Source of the DNA: Pseudothioglobus sp. nBUS_23 | Lineage (GTDB): Bacteria > Pseudomonadota > Gammaproteobacteria > PS1 > Pseudothioglobaceae | Assembly: GCF_051201565.1 (NCBI RefSeq) | Contig: NZ_CP179200.1 | Span: 1,230,001-1,262,000 of the forward strand | Reading direction: 5' to 3' | Length of the DNA: 32,000 nt | In this document: positions 3,210-29,837 of the stretch, piece after piece | Layout: each line of letters begins with the position of its first letter | Position numbering within the stretch: position 1 is the stretch's first letter | The notes under the pieces: model-generated | Told to the model about the DNA's origin: nothing | Database searches by the model: none | Seen by the model: only the letters and a program-made list of their open reading frames with translations | Position numbers and translations under genes: made by a program

Positions 3210-5015
3210 ATGATATTAGATCAAATTCAAACTCCAGTTGATATAAAAAACCTGAGCATCGATGAGCTAAATACTCTTGCTGAGGAAATTAAAGTTTTTT
3301 TAATTGAAAGTATTGAAAAAACTGGAGGTCATCTAAGCTCAAATCTTGGAACAATTGAATTAACCTTGGCGATGCATTATGTTTTTGATAGCCCAAATGA
3401 TACTTTTGTATGGGATGTTGGACACCAAGCCTACACTCATAAAGTTCTAACTGGAAGAAAAAGTATGATGTCTACACTGAGGCAAAAAGACGGTTTATCA
3501 GGCTTTACAAAAAGAAGTGAGAGCGAGCATGACGTCTTTGGCGCAGGACACTCATCTACCTCCATAAGTGCTGCCTTAGGAATTGCTTTTGCAAATAAAC
3601 TCAATGATAACTCAGATACCTCTATTGCAATTATTGGTGATGGTGCACTCACTGGTGGCATGTCATTTGAGGCACTGAACCATGCAGGTGATACGGATAC
3701 TAATCTATTAATCATTCTTAATGATAATGATATGTCAATCTCCAAGAATGTTGGGGCTCTCAGTAAATACTTAACGAGACTGATTTCAGGAAAGATCTAC
3801 TCAACAATGAAATCTAAATCACTTGAATTTTTAGAGCGCTTGCCTCGCATTCAAAAATTTGCGAAGCGTTCAGAAGAGCATTTAAAAGGGATGATTCTTC
3901 CAGGAACTCTTTTTGAAGAATTAGGTGTAGACTACTTTGGGCCAATTGATGGACATGACATATCAATCTTAATCAAGACTTTAGAAAACTTAAAGAATCT
4001 TAAAAAACCTAGAATCCTTCATATCATTACAAAGAAGGGTCATGGTCTAGAAGAGGCTGAAGAGAATCCACTGAAATTTCATGGCATATCTCCACCTTCA
4101 GTGTCAACAAATAATTTCCCAAGCTATAGCAGTGTTTTTGGAAGATGGCTTTGTAATTCTGCCAAAGTTGATGAAAAAATCATAGGCATAACTCCAGCAA
4201 TGTCAGAAGGATCAGGAATGGTTGAATTTGCCAATGAATTTCCTGAGCGCTTTGTTGATGTTGCAATTGCAGAACAACACGCAGTAACTTTGGCAGGTGG
4301 AATGGCTGCAAAGGGACTAAAACCGATAGTTGCAATCTATTCAACCTTTTTGCAACGAGGTTATGATCAGTTCATTCATGATATTGCACTGCAAAATTTA
4401 AATGTTACTTTTGCTATAGACAGAGCTGGACTTGTAGGGGCTGATGGAGCGACTCATGCTGGAATTTTTGATTTGAGTTTCTTGAGATGTATACCCAATA
4501 TTACTATCATCGCTCCGAGTTCATCAATTGAAATGTATAAAGCTCTTAATTTTGCAAACCGCTTAGAAGGACCGGTTTGTGTAAGATTTCCAAGAGGAAA
4601 GTCCAGTGTGGAAGACTTTGTTACTGACTCTGGATTTGAGTTAGGCAAAGGCGAAATTGTACGAACGGGACAAGATACTTCCATTTTTGCTTTTGGAAAT
4701 ATGCTCGAAGCCGCCATTGAAGCTTCAGAGAAGATTAATGCAACTGTTGTGGATATGAGGTTTGTAAAGCCATTAGATGAAGAGTTGATACTAAAAATTG
4801 CAAATCAGTCTAAAACTCTCATTTCTATAGAAGACAATACTTTAAATGGTGGAGCTGGAAGCGCCATCAATGAGCTATTACAAAAAAATAACATTAAAAC
4901 AAACCTTCATATACTGGGTGTTCCTGACAAAGTTACCGATCACGGGACACAATCTGAACTTTATGAACTATATGGTTTGACTGCAGAGAGAATTATTGAG
5001 GTCTCAAAGAACTAA
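3210..5015 (+). CDS. dxs: 1-deoxy-D-xylulose-5-phosphate synthase
   Basis: GHSSTSISAALG and the TPP-binding IGDGALTGGMSFEALNHAG..NDN motifs, with transketolase-like C-terminal domains. The ORF track starts at GTG 3156. ATG 3210 (MILDQIQTPVDIKNLS..) fits Dxs N-termini, and a perfect TATAAT at 3159-3164 overlaps the GTG. Confidence 0.95.
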   Translation: MILDQIQTPVDIKNLSIDELNTLAEEIKVFLIESIEKTGGHLSSNLGTIELTLAMHYVFDSPNDTFVWDVGHQAYTHKVLTGRKSMMSTLRQKDGLSGFTKRSESEHDVFGAGHSSTSISAALGIAFANKLNDNSDTSIAIIGDGALTGGMSFEALNHAGDTDTNLLIILNDNDMSISKNVGALSKYLTRLISGKIYSTMKSKSLEFLERLPRIQKFAKRSEEHLKGMILPGTLFEELGVDYFGPIDGHDISILIKTLENLKNLKKPRILHIITKKGHGLEEAEENPLKFHGISPPSVSTNNFPSYSSVFGRWLCNSAKVDEKIIGITPAMSEGSGMVEFANEFPERFVDVAIAEQHAVTLAGGMAAKGLKPIVAIYSTFLQRGYDQFIHDIALQNLNVTFAIDRAGLVGADGATHAGIFDLSFLRCIPNITIIAPSSSIEMYKALNFANRLEGPVCVRFPRGKSSVEDFVTDSGFELGKGEIVRTGQDTSIFAFGNMLEAAIEASEKINATVVDMRFVKPLDEELILKIANQSKTLISIEDNTLNGGAGSAINELLQKNNIKTNLHILGVPDKVTDHGTQSELYELYGLTAERIIEVSKN

Positions 5016-5500: not shown

Positions 5501-6566
5501 GTATTCGCCTTCTAATTTGCATTTCAAGAGTATCAACTAAAGATTCGTTATTGACCTTACTGTGAGTTTTGCCATCTATATACAATAAGTTCGGTGAACC
5601 GCCAGTAAGTCCCACACTGACCTCTTTAGCCTCTCCAGGGCCATTGACTACGCATCCAATCACAGCTACATCAATTGATTCAGTAACATCCTCAAGGCGG
5701 GACTCTAGCTCATTAACTACAGAAATGACATCAAATTTTTGTCTAGAGCATGAAGGACAAGCAATTAAGTTCACACCTTTTTTTCTTAAGTGGAGTGATT
5801 TTAAAATATCAAAACCAACTTTAACCTCATTCACAGGATCCGATGCGAGCGATACGCGAATTGTATCTCCTATACCTTCACTTAATAACATACCCATTCC
5901 AATTGAAGATTTAACAGCACCCGATCGAAAAGATCCAGCCTCAGTAATACCTAAATGAAGTGGATTGTCAATTTGCGAAGCAAGTTGGCGATAAGCAAAT
6001 ACTGTCATAAAAACTTCAGATGCCTTTAGTGACACTTTGAAATTATCAAAATTCAACCTATTTAAAATATCAATGTGCCTAAAGGCTGACTCTACCATTG
6101 CTTCAGGAGTCGGCTCAGTATATTTCTTCTGCAAATCTTTCTCAAGAGACCCTGCGTTAACTCCTACTCTGATAGGAATCCCATTATCTTTTGCAGATGC
6201 AACAACCTCTCTAACTCGATCTTCTTTACCAATATTTCCAGGGTTAATTCTCAGACAATCAGAACCGTATTCTGCCACTTTCAAAGCTATTTTGTAATCA
6301 AAATGAATGTCAGTAATTAATGGCAAGTTGACAGATTTTTTAATTTTTTTAAAGGCTTCAGCAGCCTCCATAGTTGGTATTGACACCCTGACTATGTCAG
6401 CACCAGCCTCTTCAAGGGAAATTATTTGAGCGACAGTAGAATCAACATCGCAAGTATCTGTATTTGTCATGCTTTGTACACTAATCGGAGCATCTCCACC
6501 TATGGCAACATCACCGACAAATATCTGCCTAGAAACTCGTCTTTTAATTTTGTGTATTTGCTTCAT
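5484..6566 (-). CDS. ispG: 4-hydroxy-3-methylbut-2-enyl diphosphate synthase (flavodoxin)
   Basis: Full-length similarity to IspG/GcpE (..[15 protein letters not shown].., CPSCSR and GCVVNGPGE Fe-S ligand motifs). Confidence 0.95.
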
Positions 6567-6837
6567 AATTGCTTACAACCTCATCTAGACTCTCTACATT
6601 ACTCTCTATTAATTTGGGAGCAATTGGCTCGTTAGAGTCTTCAACAACTTTTTTTTCATCTTCAACATATTCAGGGGGCTTACTGATGATAATTGTGCTT
6701 GATTTACTTTCACTTAAATCTAAATTCTGAAGATAATACCACAGACTGATTAGAGCCAAGAAAAACAATAAGAGTCCGATTAATTTTCCAAAAGATCTTT
6801 TTTTCTTTTTTGGGTAGTAATCAATTCCGTCCAACAT
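6544..6837 (-). CDS. Small single-pass membrane protein (hypothetical; occupies the RodZ slot between rlmN and ispG)
   Basis: Basic stretch KKKKRSFGK followed by one clear TM helix ([18 protein letters not shown]) and an acidic tail. Overlaps rlmN by 17 nt and ispG by 23 nt, so it looks operonic. No recognisable domain. Confidence 0.5.
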
Positions 6838-9885: not shown

Positions 9886-10902
9886 ATGAAAGAGAAACTA
9901 TTAAACACTCCTATAAGTTTTCCAAATACTCTCCCTGAGGGATACTACTATCTTGAAGATGAGCCCGCTTATGATTCAAATATTCATCTAGAGCTTGAAC
10001 TCCCTAAAAAATCTTTCTCTCTTTCTGACTTAGGATATACCAAAGATGAGATAGAAAAGTGTCCTACAAGTTTTGGTGTTTCTGGTATCGCAAGGCTTTT
10101 GTCAGATGAAGGAGTTAGAGTTTTAATGCAGACTGCACAATCACTCAGAAAATTTTCTTCGAGTGGGGGAGAGAGGATTCAATATTTACTTCGTGGGTGT
10201 GTATATCGATCTAGATTTTTAAGGGACTTATGCTTGTGTCCGAAAGTGAGTGAATTCTTATCTGAGATCTATGGTATTCCAGTAGCGCCTCACTCTGTAC
10301 CCCTTCATCTTGGGCACTTTAACTTTGCCCCAGACGACCTGAGTCGTGCAGTTGACAAGTGGCATACTGATACTATTGGACTTGATTATGTGATGATGGT
10401 ATCTGACCCAAATAAACAGATTGGGGGTCAATTTCAGTATTTCCTTGGCACAAAGAAAGAGGCTCAAGAGATTAAAGACAGCAATCAATCTATGCCAGAA
10501 GACAGGATTATTAGTCCTCATTTCCCTGGGCCCGGCTATATTATTGTATTACAAGGAAATATGGTGGTTCATAGAGGTGCTAAACTAAAAGAGCCTTATG
10601 ATAGAGTAACAATGGTTAATGCCTATGTTCCATTGGGATTAGACTCAAGCGATCCATCAAGATTTTCTGATGTTAAAACCGTTGACCCTCATCAGCTACT
10701 ATTTCCGGAATGGGCTCGTCACAAAGCCTGGTTATCCCGCGGCAAATTAAATCGTCTTATTGAAGAGCTACCTTTCACTGATGACAAAGACCTAATTATT
10801 AGTGAACTAAAAAATGCGATCAGCGATGTTGAAACTGCAATCAGCGATCTCTCTGAAAGTGGCTCTGGTGAACAAAATTTTTATGGAGATTTAGAACAAT
10901 AA
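9886..10902 (+). CDS. Hypothetical protein; putative Fe(II)/2-oxoglutarate-dependent dioxygenase (TauD/TfdA-like motifs)
   Basis: KWHTDTIGLDYV (HxD), a distal LQGNMVVHRGA..DRVTM (His plus Arg) and GGQFQYF resemble the TauD-type facial triad context. The acidic helical C-terminal ~70 aa has no obvious match. The ORF is clean and followed by a terminator. Confidence 0.6.
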   Translation: MKEKLLNTPISFPNTLPEGYYYLEDEPAYDSNIHLELELPKKSFSLSDLGYTKDEIEKCPTSFGVSGIARLLSDEGVRVLMQTAQSLRKFSSSGGERIQYLLRGCVYRSRFLRDLCLCPKVSEFLSEIYGIPVAPHSVPLHLGHFNFAPDDLSRAVDKWHTDTIGLDYVMMVSDPNKQIGGQFQYFLGTKKEAQEIKDSNQSMPEDRIISPHFPGPGYIIVLQGNMVVHRGAKLKEPYDRVTMVNAYVPLGLDSSDPSRFSDVKTVDPHQLLFPEWARHKAWLSRGKLNRLIEELPFTDDKDLIISELKNAISDVETAISDLSESGSGEQNFYGDLEQ

Positions 10903-27513: not shown

Positions 27514-28113
27514 TTAAAGATTATCAGCATTTTTTGATAAATACTCTGCGACACTCTGAGCACTCTCATTCATCCCATCATCGCCCTTGTTCCATCCAGC
27601 TGGACAGACTTCACCATTTTCGGTATGAAAATCAAGTGCATCAACCATTCTCAGCATTTCATCTACATTCCTACCTAATGGATGATCATTTACTACTTGG
27701 TGACGAATAACAAAGTTCTCATCTATTAAAAAAGAAGCTCTTAATGCTGTTCCCTCAGGGTGTTCAATTCCATATGAGCTCATAATTGAGTGATTCATAT
27801 CTGAAACTAATGGAAAGTCTATTGCTCCTATTCCTCCATCATTAACATTAGTATTTCGCCAAGCATTATGAGTGTGCTTAGAGTCTATTGAGACTCCAAT
27901 AAGCATAGTATTTCTCTCATCAAAAGCTTTAACTCTTTTGTGATGAGCCAAAATCTCAGAAGGGCAAACAAATGTAAAGTCCAGTGGATAGAAAAAAAGT
28001 ACTATTTTTCTCCCTTTGAATTTTGATAGTTGAAAGTCATCAACAATACTCCCATCACCAAGAATAGCGGATGAAATAAAGTCAGGTGCTTGTTTAGTAA
28101 CCAATACGCTCAA
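27514..28113 (-). CDS. Typical 2-Cys peroxiredoxin (AhpC/Tsa family)
   Basis: Peroxidatic Cys motif FTFVCPSE and resolving Cys EVCPAGW. TTG start at 28113 lies 6 nt after an AGGAG SD. No ahpF follows, so it is probably thioredoxin-linked. Confidence 0.92.
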   Translation of the reverse strand: MSVLVTKQAPDFISSAILGDGSIVDDFQLSKFKGRKIVLFFYPLDFTFVCPSEILAHHKRVKAFDERNTMLIGVSIDSKHTHNAWRNTNVNDGGIGAIDFPLVSDMNHSIMSSYGIEHPEGTALRASFLIDENFVIRHQVVNDHPLGRNVDEMLRMVDALDFHTENGEVCPAGWNKGDDGMNESAQSVAEYLSKNADNL

Positions 28114-28343
28114 AGTATTCTCCTGTTTAATGTTCTAGGGCTTTTGTAATAGGAATCTAATTCTTTCTTAAAGTCATTTTTCACTTGATCTAAGAGTATT
28201 TGACCAATAATTTTCTTTGGAATGCCGTGTTTCCTCATCGAAATAAAACTCAAACGATTGGCTTTCTTTAGTAAATAGATTTTGTAGCTATACCAATATT
28301 TCATTTTTAGTTTAAAAAAAGCCCTATGGAAGGAGGAAGACAT
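28110..28343 (-). CDS. Doubtful 77-aa basic ORF upstream of the peroxiredoxin gene
   Basis: ORF-track entry only, with no SD and no recognisable domain. Its ATG and first ~10 codons are the stem and U-tract of a strong terminator hairpin, and its Lys/Tyr-rich composition is typical of AT-rich non-coding sequence. Confidence 0.2.
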   Translation of the reverse strand: MSSSFHRAFFKLKMKYWYSYKIYLLKKANRLSFISMRKHGIPKKIIGQILLDQVKNDFKKELDSYYKSPRTLNRRIL

Positions 28344-28348
28344 AGGGC
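28311..28348 (-). terminator. Orphan rho-independent terminator (minus strand)
   Basis: Minus strand reads GCCCTATG-tcttcctccttc-CATAGGGC followed by TTTTTTTAAA (8-bp stem with 5 GC pairs, 12-nt loop, U7 tail). No annotated minus-strand gene lies upstream of it. Confidence 0.7.
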
Positions 28349-28367
28349 CAATTAATTACAAATAGGG

Positions 28368-28391
28368 AGTTATTAAAGGAAGTAAATAACT
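28368..28391. other. Hairpin H2 with AAGGAAG (plus) / CUUCCUU (minus) loop
   Basis: AGTTATT-aaaggaagta-AATAACT, a perfect 7-bp inverted repeat. Confidence 0.45.
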
Positions 28392-28439
28392 ATGAATGTA
28401 ATTAAAATATCACTTATTTAAAATCTCCTTTGATATTTC

Positions 28440-28472
28440 GCTTCATACTAGTTCGGAGGGCTATTCTGAAGC
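28440..28472. other. Hairpin H1 with GGAGGG (plus) / CCCUCC (minus) loop
   Basis: GCTTCA-(21 nt including an inner TAG/CTA pairing)-TGAAGC. The apical loop is ttcggaggg. Confidence 0.4.
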
Positions 28473-28565
28473 AGTTGAAATGATCAAAAATAAAACGAAG
28501 ATTGAGGAAGTCAGTTTTATAAATAATCATTTCAAACCTTTAAAAAATTTAGTGTTTTCAATTTA

Positions 28566-28600
28566 ATGATAATGATACTCATTCTCATTTGCAATTGCAA
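28566..28600 (-). promoter_or_regulatory. Candidate sigma70 promoter(s), minus strand
   Basis: Minus strand reads TTGCAATTGCAAATGAGAATGAGTATCATTATCAT. This gives two registers of TTGCAA, then 17 nt, then TATCAT (-35 at 28595-28600 or 28589-28594; -10 at 28572-28577 or 28566-28571). Confidence 0.5.
28568..28586. promoter_or_regulatory. Fur box (ferric uptake regulator operator)
   Basis: GATAATGATACTCATTCTC matches the consensus GATAATGATAATCATTATC at 17/19 positions. It overlaps the spacer and -10 of the minus-strand promoter and lies 115 nt upstream of the CDF gene ATG. Confidence 0.7.
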
Positions 28601-28700
28601 GTCTTTTTTAAAAAAAAATTGTAATATCTACTATGGAGTTCAAAAATCGTAATAACATAACCTAAAATATAACTATAAAACTTTCAATAATTAACACTGA

Positions 28701-29837
28701 ATGGATTTAGGAAAACGCAGTAAGGAAAGTCAAAAAGTAACCATTGTTGGGGCTTCAATTGATTTATTTCTTTCGATCATAAAAATTGTATTGGGTTACA
28801 TTGGACAATCAAGTGCTCTAATTGCTGATGGAATTCACTCTTTTTCTGATTTGCTCACTGACTGGGTAACTTGGTATGCTTCAAAACTTTCTGGTGACGC
28901 GCCAGACGACGATCATCCTTATGGTCATGAGCGTTTTGAAACTGTAGCAACGCTTGGTATCAGTATTTTTTTAGCGATTGTTGGAACTATAATTATATTT
29001 GATGGCTTTGAACGCTTCTCAAATCCTAATGAGCTTCAATATGGCAACTGGTTAATTGCTGCTGCTGCTTTATCTATATTGAGTAAAGAAGGGCTTTATT
29101 GGTATACACTTAAAGTTTCAAAAAATATAAAATCTGACCTTCTTAGGGCAAATGCTTGGCATCACAGAACGGATGCCTTGTCCTCTATCGTTGTAGTTAT
29201 AGGAATCATTGGCGCTGTTAATGGATACTCTTTCCTTGATAGTGTGGCGGCTATGATTGTTGGAGTATTAATCATATATATTGGCTGGCAACTTGGCTTC
29301 GAAGCCACTAAGGAATTAGTTGATACGTCAATTGATCAAGAAGATATAAAGGCACTTCGTTTAGCTTTGTCTGAGATTAAAGGTGTCAAAAGTGTTCATA
29401 CTCTCAGAACAAGAAAGGTTGGCCATAAAAAGTCTGCCGATGTCCATGTCCAGGTTAATCCCTTTTTGTCTGTTAGTGAGGGTCATATTATTAGTGTAAG
29501 TGTTGAGCGTGTTGCTAAAGAATGCATCGAAGAGCTTGATGACGTTACTGTACATATAGATCCAGAGAATGATGAAGAAAAAGAGGATGCACCTTATAAG
29601 GACTTACCTGAGCGTGCACAGGCTCTAAAAATTATTAGTCAATCTTTAAAACTTGAAAACTTAAATTTTGAAATTGAGAAAACACAGCTTCATTACTTGG
29701 ACGGGGAAATATTGGTTGATTTTTACTTATCAATTGATTATTTAAAAAATAAAACAACTGAGCAGATTCAATCAGAATTCAGTTCAGCTCTTGAAAAACT
29801 TCCAGGGTTTGGCCAAGTTAAGGTCTATTACAGCTAG
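28701..29837 (+). CDS. Cation diffusion facilitator (CDF) family divalent-metal efflux transporter with extended C-terminus
   Basis: Six predicted TM helices with metal-site motifs HSFSD (TM2) and HHRTD (TM5). A cytoplasmic CTD (..VKSVHTLRTRKVGHKKSADVHVQV..VTVHIDPEN) is followed by about 88 extra residues. Confidence 0.88.
   Translation: MDLGKRSKESQKVTIVGASIDLFLSIIKIVLGYIGQSSALIADGIHSFSDLLTDWVTWYASKLSGDAPDDDHPYGHERFETVATLGISIFLAIVGTIIIFDGFERFSNPNELQYGNWLIAAAALSILSKEGLYWYTLKVSKNIKSDLLRANAWHHRTDALSSIVVVIGIIGAVNGYSFLDSVAAMIVGVLIIYIGWQLGFEATKELVDTSIDQEDIKALRLALSEIKGVKSVHTLRTRKVGHKKSADVHVQVNPFLSVSEGHIISVSVERVAKECIEELDDVTVHIDPENDEEKEDAPYKDLPERAQALKIISQSLKLENLNFEIEKTQLHYLDGEILVDFYLSIDYLKNKTTEQIQSEFSSALEKLPGFGQVKVYYS

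Follow-up and report, generated by a model that had tools for sequence, protein, structure and literature searches.

A conserved gene for a structured RNA with a Fur-type operator, and the small protein gene that follows it, in Candidatus Pseudothioglobus

The genome of Pseudothioglobus sp. nBUS_23 was analysed over a stretch of 32,000 nucleotides (nt) (contig NZ_CP179200.1, positions 1,230,001 to 1,262,000), hereafter referred to as the window, in which all coordinates are given. The window is densely coded with a G+C content of 36.7%, and its longest non-coding stretch, upstream of a divergent CDF gene, is the subject of the present analysis. An earlier note on this DNA had described that stretch as the only long non-coding one; it is the longest in the window, at about 400 nt rather than about 590 nt, as the positions 28110-28304 are a gene. 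At the sequence level the stretch holds a genuine and conserved gene for a structured RNA, with a Fur-type operator at its promoter and belonging to a family that has not been described previously; this is evident in its Fur box, promoter, terminator, conservation, structure, strand and linkage to a small gene. The proposal of the note that a Fur-controlled small RNA or leader of a new family is encoded on the minus strand is supported by the conserved promoter and terminator, by a five-hairpin structure with wobble and compensatory changes, by CU-rich loops at least as conserved as the stems and by the lack of any match in Rfam.

The operator, promoter, RNA body and terminator

The predicted features of the RNA gene, with its stem-loops (SL) numbered from the 5' end, are as follows.

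28595-28600, minus strand: -35 hexamer TTGCAA, from a promoter scan; kept in 30 of 32 distinct upstream sequences, the others having TTGTAA and TTGCAT
28572-28577, minus strand: -10 hexamer TATCAT after a 17-nt spacer, from the promoter scan and conservation in the 32 distinct upstream sequences
28562-28592, no strand assigned: Fur-box array of five NATWAT hexamers, TTTAAT GATAAT GATACT CATTCT CATTTG, with the core 19-mer at 28568-28586
28314-28564, minus strand: predicted RNA of about 250 nt, made up of an A/U-rich 5' tail, SL1 to SL4 and the terminator
28477-28533, minus strand: SL1, a long hairpin with the loop CUUCCUC (plus-strand GAGGAAG, 28504-28510), -12.8 kcal/mol
28440-28472, minus strand: SL2, a hairpin with the loop AAUAGCCCUCCGAA (CCCUCC being plus-strand 28455-28460)
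28405-28438, minus strand: SL3, a hairpin of -2.5 kcal/mol with an 18-nt loop carrying an invariant Shine-Dalgarno-like AAAGGAG (plus-strand 28425-28431)
28353-28404, minus strand: SL4, a two-tier hairpin, loop with invariant UUUACUUCCUUUA (plus-strand about 28373-28385), -8.3 kcal/mol, z = -5.1
28314-28349, minus strand: intrinsic terminator with a G+C-rich stem of 8-9 bp, the 12-nt loop UCUUCCUCCUUC and U7, -13 kcal/mol

The core of the hexamer array, GATAATGATACTCATTCTC, agrees with the Fur consensus GATAATGATAATCATTATC at 17 of 19 positions and, with its two mismatches, stands alone in the window, where no other site has three mismatches or fewer and 0.01 such sites would be expected by chance. 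The second-best unrelated Fur-like site in the window has five mismatches, and none of the 100 shuffles in the Fur-box shuffling control reached 2 matches. A scan of 1.1 Mb of related loci placed all other sites with up to three mismatches inside coding sequences. The 17/19 match claimed earlier is borne out as a site unique in the window and conserved in the members of the RNA family.

The array covers the promoter spacer, the -10 hexamer and the start site, which is predicted near 28564 from the usual spacing after the -10, and extends to about +10. The two minus-strand registers of TTGCAA-17 nt-TATCAT described in the earlier note are both found in the window; conservation is confined to one of them (-35 at 28600-28595, -10 at 28577-28572) and does not extend to the second (28594/28566). 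Across the 32 distinct upstream sequences AATGAgAATGAGTATCATTATCATT is nearly invariant, spacer positions included, and their consensus consists of a T-run, an A-run, TTGCAA, ttgcAAATGAgAATGAG, TATCAT and TATCATTAAAT. An invariant spacer is unexplained by promoter function alone and is explained by a protein site laid over the promoter. A Fur site over the RNA promoter, which would be the arrangement of a Fur-repressed small RNA, is present as a sequence match in all members of the family. Directly upstream of the -35 (28601-28620), about eight T followed by about eight A are kept in most family members; these runs, lying between the divergent promoters of the RNA and the CDF gene, may serve as an UP element or a bend.

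The element was found at the same place in 10 of the 20 closest species-level genomes. A metagenome scan with two conserved blocks, CCTCCGAA and ATATCAAAGGAG, yielded 69 loci, 48 of which are family members, and the genome loci, the scan and three loci obtained via the small protein together gave 67 instances with 45 distinct sequences, 43 of which were aligned (alignment A1). The loci L103, L127, L144 and L180 form a divergent clade. A covariance model (R1) detects a single copy at each locus, no second one in the window and no RNA body in the relatives without the module, and the RNA is best read as specific to the Candidatus Pseudothioglobus lineage (SUP05/Arctic96BD-19 clade). Per site, pairwise differences are lowest for the promoter with its Fur box (0.05) and for SL2 and the terminator (0.05-0.07), rising to 0.13-0.19 in SL3 and SL4 and to 0.30 in SL1; over the whole RNA the value is 0.18. 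The corresponding values for the first, second and third codon positions of the adjacent small gene are 0.23, 0.15 and 0.39, so that several parts of the RNA are more constrained than second codon positions.

The minus strand is predicted to fold into five hairpins (-52.7 kcal/mol, z = -4.6), and the same fold is obtained in every clade. In alignment A1, 90.3% of the stem cells hold standard pairs, against 34-48% when the partners are slid by 1-3 columns, and a model-guided realignment agrees with it (90-91% overall, against 33-48% in the slid controls). In all, 12-13 pairs are changed on both sides, the observed values being attained by at most one in 500 shuffles. The stems, whose covariation among related genomes the earlier note had proposed to test, show wobble and compensatory changes that support the five-hairpin structure. 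The outer helix of SL1 is 91% paired with G.U variants, and its inner part has been rebuilt in the L015 and L103 clades, with UCCU(C/A)A left unpaired in all clades. One stem pair of SL2 is C-G in 32, U-G in 4 and U-A in 7 sequences. Pairing in the outer stem of SL4 reaches 97%; A-U is often replaced there by G-U and U-A by U-G, and in one case A-U by G-C. The inner stem shows G-C to U-G changes, and further compensatory changes come from L103 and L180. SL3 alone is a weak hairpin. The AAGGAG in its loop is the perfect complement of the terminator loop's invariant CUCCUU and, if one wobble is allowed, of the SL4 loop, and RNAalifold prefers a helix between AAAGGA of SL3 and UCCUUU of SL4; all the bases involved in these candidate pairings are invariant.

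The terminator consists of GCCCTATG (28348-28341), the loop TCTTCCTCCTTC (28340-28329), CATAGGGC (28328-28321) and U7 (28320-28314). It is found in all family members, and one of its pairs, C-G in 42 sequences, is replaced by a compensatory U-A in L103. The consensus terminator scanner used here was limited to loops of up to 8 nt and the terminator, with its 12-nt loop, escaped it. The earlier description of a strong terminator at this place holds, while its designation as an orphan does not, as the gene for a 64-amino-acid (aa) protein starts 9-47 nt after it. A conserved terminator with its U-tract and the lack of a conserved open reading frame (ORF) in the RNA are what a discrete non-coding transcript would be expected to display. 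The ends of the metagenome contigs were also considered as a clue to the transcript ends and showed no pattern.

The strand of the RNA is indicated by several features. Variation in the stems, read on the minus strand, comprises 142 G.U cells against 42 A.C cells, the covariance model gives the minus strand 269 bits and the plus strand 17 bits, and a U-tract follows the strong stem on the minus strand only. The wobble and compensatory changes of the stems fit the minus strand only.

Of the five CU-rich motifs listed in the earlier note, all are present; four of them, rather than three, lie in conserved hairpin loops (SL1, SL2, SL4 and the terminator), and the fifth, CUCCCU, is not conserved. 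The loop motifs are CUUCCUC in SL1, CCCUCC in SL2, CUUCCUUU in SL4 and CUUCCUCCUUC with CUCCUU in the terminator, and share the core UCCU. CUCCUU of the terminator loop is invariant in the family, and the CCUCCUU found there is the sequence at the 3' end of 16S rRNA, the anti-Shine-Dalgarno. In the unbiased set, variability is 0.053 in the loop of SL2, 0.00 in that of SL4 and 0.095 in that of the terminator, against 0.129 at paired positions; the loops, as conserved as the stems or more so, thus look functional. The L015 clade has gained an extra small hairpin with the loop CUCCUAA. In the 35 start regions of the window, a Shine-Dalgarno sequence is borne by only some genes, and the loops could therefore discriminate between mRNAs.

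No Rfam family matched anywhere in the window at gathering thresholds. With the E-value raised to 10, the region 28050-28750 gave only noise (icaR 5'UTR, Tetrahymena snoRNA, bxd_5, manA-II, RsaOG, mir-84 and tsr25), and RyhB (RF00057), PrrF (RF00444), NrrF and the other iron-related small RNAs of Rfam were not matched there. The hit to IsrR/tsr25 (RF02578; 28475-28535, minus strand) scores 12.5 bits with E = 5.2 where the gathering score is 63, a noise-level value that is no evidence of homology. For Thioglobus, Pseudothioglobus and SUP05, the literature searched yielded no work on small RNAs, Fur or Hfq, nor was the core sequence of the RNA found in any paper.

The downstream gene, the neighbourhood and the distant relatives

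The genes adjoining the RNA are arranged as follows.

28110-28304, minus strand: gene for a 64-aa basic protein (MKYWYSYKIYLLKK...), its ATG 9 nt past the U-tract, with a coding-type substitution pattern
27514-28113, minus strand: AhpC-type peroxiredoxin gene, with Pfam and NCBIfam matches; TTG start with the ribosome-binding site AGGAG
Local order: DinG (plus), ahpC (minus), the RNA region, CDF (plus, 28701-29837), RuvC, thioredoxin and an ArsC-family gene

The 64-aa gene follows the RNA in the same orientation at every locus with a contig long enough, at a distance from U-tract to ATG of 9 nt in the window and of up to 47 nt elsewhere. Its ORF has no Shine-Dalgarno sequence of its own and, as it also lacks a separate promoter, read-through of the terminator would be the simplest route to its expression. 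The protein is strongly basic, with a net charge of about +12 by our own count, and is modelled by AlphaFold2 as a helical hairpin (predicted local distance difference test score 74.5); Pfam, NCBIfam, PDB sequences and Foldseek gave no match to it. Such a fixed partnership of an RNA with a small orphan protein is unusual.

The 64-aa ORF and ahpC meet in the sequence TTGA (28110-28113), where the stop codon of the former overlaps the start of the latter. This suggests translational coupling of the two in this genome; some pipelines call a 196-aa AhpC product from a later start. The ahpC gene is a variable member of the unit: eight loci lack it and in several others a further gene intervenes, together about one locus in four. 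Among the relatives without the RNA, decayed remnants of the small ORF are found in L013 and L020, and a truncated ahpC fragment of 82 aa lies upstream of CDF in L016, indicating that the module has been lost secondarily in several lineages.

A profile search identified remote homologues of the 64-aa protein that have in common a motif of about 46 residues at the N-terminus. In a freshwater gammaproteobacterium that shares the thioredoxin-RuvC-CDF neighbourhood (L170-L173) and in uncultured Candidatus Thioglobus (L174-L175), the homologue lies behind a homologous Fur-box promoter; that of L174, CTTGCAATTATAAATGATAATGAGTATCATTTGCATT, is 83% identical to the window over 53 nt (E = 1e-9). The gene order there is a 27-aa ORF, a cysteine-rich ORF of 42-44 aa, the small protein, a protein with weak similarity to a siderophore porin, an imelysin-like Peptidase_M75 and DHOR. 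Genes of the imelysin/Peptidase_M75, DHOR and siderophore-porin types are associated with iron uptake. The L174 cluster adjoins bfd and two ferritin-family genes, whose intergenic region carries a Fur box of its own with two mismatches. In the Thioglobus-type loci neither the covariance model nor blastn finds a match to the RNA body, and only the promoter and the small-protein gene align. The homologous box at iron genes of relatives marks genuine iron genes in this bacterial family and thereby raises the confidence in Fur control. By sequence comparison, the promoter and the small protein constitute an old iron-regulon unit beside the CDF gene, in which two peptide ORFs have been replaced in Pseudothioglobus by the 250-nt RNA.

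Several further observations were made at these loci. In L170 (2463-3165) and L174 (2454-3153) the Fur-box promoter is followed by the 27-aa ORF with a strong ribosome-binding site (MKVKKGYLVISRKELEDYLDFFSRLVN and MTMRKGYIIISPKELKDYLDFFEKLAN, respectively), then by the 42-44-aa ORF with a cysteine-rich C-terminus (...GACTGCCSDCSDKKRN and ...NACVNCCVGCKPK, respectively) and the small-protein homologue. The small ORFs matched no known family and may represent an undescribed system of iron-regulated peptides. Upstream of the porin-like, imelysin and DHOR genes of L174 lies a second promoter of the same build (3225-3285), TTGATA-17 nt-TATCAT, which likewise contains GATAAT-type hexamers and suggests a common layout of Fur-regulated promoters in this bacterial family. 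In L176-L178, from a hydrothermal-vent metagenome, a 65-aa remote homologue lies behind a 135-aa ORF and acetolactate synthase genes and lacks a Fur box, a context indicating that the small-protein family is not always tied to iron loci.

Identical copies of the CDF protein are encoded on numerous marine metagenome contigs, 572 blocks of the collection of assemblies listing it, and it occurs at 72-92% identity in genomes labelled Candidatus Pseudothioglobus, Candidatus Thioglobus, SUP05 or Thiotrichales. Elsewhere in the window, the ORFs 9886-10902 (plus strand, 338 aa) and 6544-6837 (minus strand, 97 aa) have no Pfam match at E-values up to 1e-5.

Proposed mode of action and alternative explanations

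The RNA is interpreted here, with a probability of roughly 0.55, as a lineage-specific, Fur-repressed small RNA of about 250 nt whose anti-Shine-Dalgarno-like loops act in trans on ribosome-binding sites in an iron-sparing response, with read-through to the small protein. When iron is plentiful, Fe-Fur bound to the hexamer array would block the sigma-70 promoter. When iron is scarce, the RNA would be transcribed and its five hairpins would fold, most transcripts ending at the terminator. The CU-rich loops with their UCCU core, mimicking the anti-Shine-Dalgarno, would then pair with the purine-rich ribosome-binding sites of some mRNAs and lower their translation, an iron-sparing response of the IsrR or FsrA type. 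A read-through fraction would express the 64-aa basic protein and, where present, AhpC under the same control; AhpC is an iron-free peroxidase. The dependence on Fur and iron, the discrete transcript, the trans-pairing to ribosome-binding sites and the read-through are what we infer from the features described above, and the RNA probably helps the cells to adjust to iron scarcity.

Several points weigh against this interpretation. The RNA is never seen apart from the 64-aa gene, and a purely cis-acting leader would look alike; the promoter scan revealed no promoter-like site between the Fur promoter and the 64-aa ORF; and the homologous promoter of the relatives drives protein-coding genes where the RNA is absent. 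A target search with full-length and loop-only duplexes against the 35 start regions of the window yielded nothing distinctive. Neither fur nor hfq lies within the window or the fetched loci. Both the transcription start and the 3' end of the RNA are predictions, and fold stability does not separate the strands, the plus strand reaching -57.2 kcal/mol (z = -3.8, against -4.6 for the minus strand). The metagenome scan demanded both CCTCCGAA and ATATCAAAGGAG, so that their invariance can be judged only on the 14 loci from protein searches, in which the two blocks are invariant also.

The main alternative, a serious one though less probable than the interpretation above, is that the RNA is purely a cis-acting 5' leader or attenuator of the 64-aa gene, and of ahpC with it, in which the small protein might bind the CU-rich loops of its own leader and autoregulate termination or antitermination. 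The position of the RNA, always immediately upstream of the small gene and in its orientation, is as such a leader would require, as are the missing promoter and the short distance (9-47 nt) from U-tract to ATG. Likewise, the homologous promoter of the relatives heads a protein-coding operon that includes the same small protein, the RNA and the small ORF appear to have been lost together with remnants of the ORF left behind, and a charge of about +12 is compatible with RNA binding. However, a search by eye revealed no conserved antiterminator pairing, and the best candidate, between AGCCCU of the SL2 loop and AGGGCU of the 3' arm of the terminator, is broken in the L103 clade, where the terminator has changed and SL2 has not. 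Moreover, four repeated loop motifs with a common core are typical of multi-seed small RNAs or sponges rather than aptamers, none of the known models of riboswitches or leaders matches, and the small ORF has no Shine-Dalgarno sequence that the anti-Shine-Dalgarno loops could mask.

It is highly improbable that there is no functional RNA, with the Fur box regulating the divergent CDF gene and the remainder being promoter DNA and decaying remnants of peptide genes. The CDF family does include iron and zinc exporters, and two peptide ORFs occupy the equivalent position in the relatives. Yet the CDF -10, TAAAAT (28663-28668), with its context ACCTAAAATA (28639-28668), does not vary among the 20 relatives, even where the Fur box and the RNA module are missing, and the CDF promoter thus appears independent of the box, whose distance upstream of the CDF -35 in addition exceeds 45 nt; a Fur box serving the CDF gene was rejected as unlikely because that promoter is kept in the box-less relatives. 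Nor does an RNA body that is more conserved than the neighbouring coding sequence, and shows compensatory changes, resemble decaying DNA.

A small peptide as the payload of the transcript is equally improbable. The 38-codon ORF (28414-28530) that the earlier note had offered as an alternative is present in the window but is not conserved, being frameshifted in L011 and L014, absent from the L015 clade and without codon periodicity (0.136/0.206/0.130). The other candidate, a 3-codon mini-ORF (28405-28431, minus strand), takes the form AAAGGAG, 10-11 nt, GUG AUA NNN stop in 37 of 43 sequences, with a 4-codon version in two more; however, its bases coincide with the 3' arm of SL3, so that it could be a by-product of the SL3 stem and A/U richness, and L028 has GAG instead of GUG.

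Least credible of all is a protein sponge of the CsrB/RsmZ type on the plus strand, where GGA motifs occupy four hairpin loops (GGAAGGAGGAAG, AAAGGAAG, GGAGGG and GAGGAAG), the fold is about equally good and a palindrome, TTGCAATTGCAA, with T6 (28589-28609) could pass as a weak terminator, since neither that palindrome nor its T-run is conserved, no promoter is found upstream, where the small gene is coded, the T-run of the strong stem is on the minus strand only, the dominant G.U variation becomes C.A mismatch (the 142 against 42 cells above), the covariance model prefers the minus strand by 269 bits to 17, and CsrB, RsmY and RsmZ models match neither strand at E-values up to 10.

Comparison with known systems and significance

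As a Fur-repressed, proteobacterial, iron-sparing small RNA, the RNA proposed here would resemble RyhB of Enterobacteria and Vibrio, PrrF1, PrrF2 and PrrH of Pseudomonas, NrrF and HrrF, with PrrH in particular also having a longer product that depends on terminator read-through. RNAs of the RyhB/PrrF type are 90-120 nt long, Hfq-dependent and possess a single-stranded core, and FsrA of Bacillus subtilis is about 84 nt long. The RNA described here differs from the RyhB/PrrF type in having several anti-Shine-Dalgarno-like hairpin loops and in matching no Rfam model. With CsrB, RsmY and RsmZ it shares multiple hairpins with the same short loop motif; it differs in carrying UCCU on the transcribed strand and GGA only on the untranscribed one, so that it has neither their GGA loops nor a match to their models, and we know of no bacterial protein that is sequestered by CU-rich loops. 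With terminator-ended leaders and riboswitches that give rise to stable small RNAs it has in common a structured RNA between promoter and first gene, a terminator, covarying stems and conserved unpaired bases; it lacks a conserved antiterminator and a match to any known aptamer, and its repeated loop motif is unlike a ligand pocket.

The closest likeness is to RNAs of Firmicutes, from which, to our knowledge, the design of a Fur box combined with C-rich loops that hit ribosome-binding sites has so far come. IsrR (S596/Tsr25) of Staphylococcus is a Fur-repressed iron-sparing small RNA of 174 nt with three C-rich loop regions and two Fur boxes (PMC9410917). As in IsrR, the Fur boxes lie over the promoter and start, several stem-loops precede a Rho-independent terminator, and conserved C-rich motifs in single-stranded loops are able to pair with G-rich Shine-Dalgarno regions, in an AT-rich genome and a family confined to one genus. 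It differs from IsrR in its length of about 250 nt, its four CU-rich loops, its gammaproteobacterial host and the small protein gene that always follows, and the two share no homology of sequence or model. FsrA of Bacillus subtilis, as summarised in the same source, is a Fur-repressed small RNA whose C-rich motif binds the Shine-Dalgarno sequence and which works with the small basic proteins FbpA, FbpB and FbpC of the Fur regulon (PMC9410917). Fur control, C-rich motifs able to pair with Shine-Dalgarno sequences and small basic proteins would be common to both systems, with the difference that the partners of FsrA are encoded elsewhere, while here the 64-aa gene comes immediately after the RNA and apparently belongs to one transcription unit with it. 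Homology between the two systems was not detected. A role of the 64-aa protein in RNA binding would be pure conjecture.

The interpretation as a trans-acting small RNA may be carried further, to a self-contained riboregulatory cassette comprising four anti-Shine-Dalgarno loops, one Shine-Dalgarno-like loop able to kiss them and a 64-aa helical-hairpin partner made by read-through, the RNA having taken the place of two peptide genes when it arose in the leader of a Fur-regulated ancestral operon for iron uptake. Such a cassette would be a fused counterpart of FsrA and FbpABC; we offer this extended version as speculative and rather improbable as a whole.

In large parts of the ocean, microbial activity is held back by a shortage of iron. 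Pseudothioglobus, of the heterotrophic SUP05/Arctic96BD-19 lineage, is an abundant group, and regulators are usually considered scarce in streamlined marine genomes. If the RNA is Fur-controlled, it would provide a marker of iron stress in situ that is readable from metatranscriptomes and, for an organism difficult to grow in culture, an entry to its iron-sparing network, and would represent a further independent origin of the design combining a Fur box with C-rich loops. The comparison with Thioglobus shows how such an RNA can arise inside the leader of an existing iron operon and, should the cassette prove true, it would be an instance of a small RNA born in the operon leader of a streamlined marine genome.

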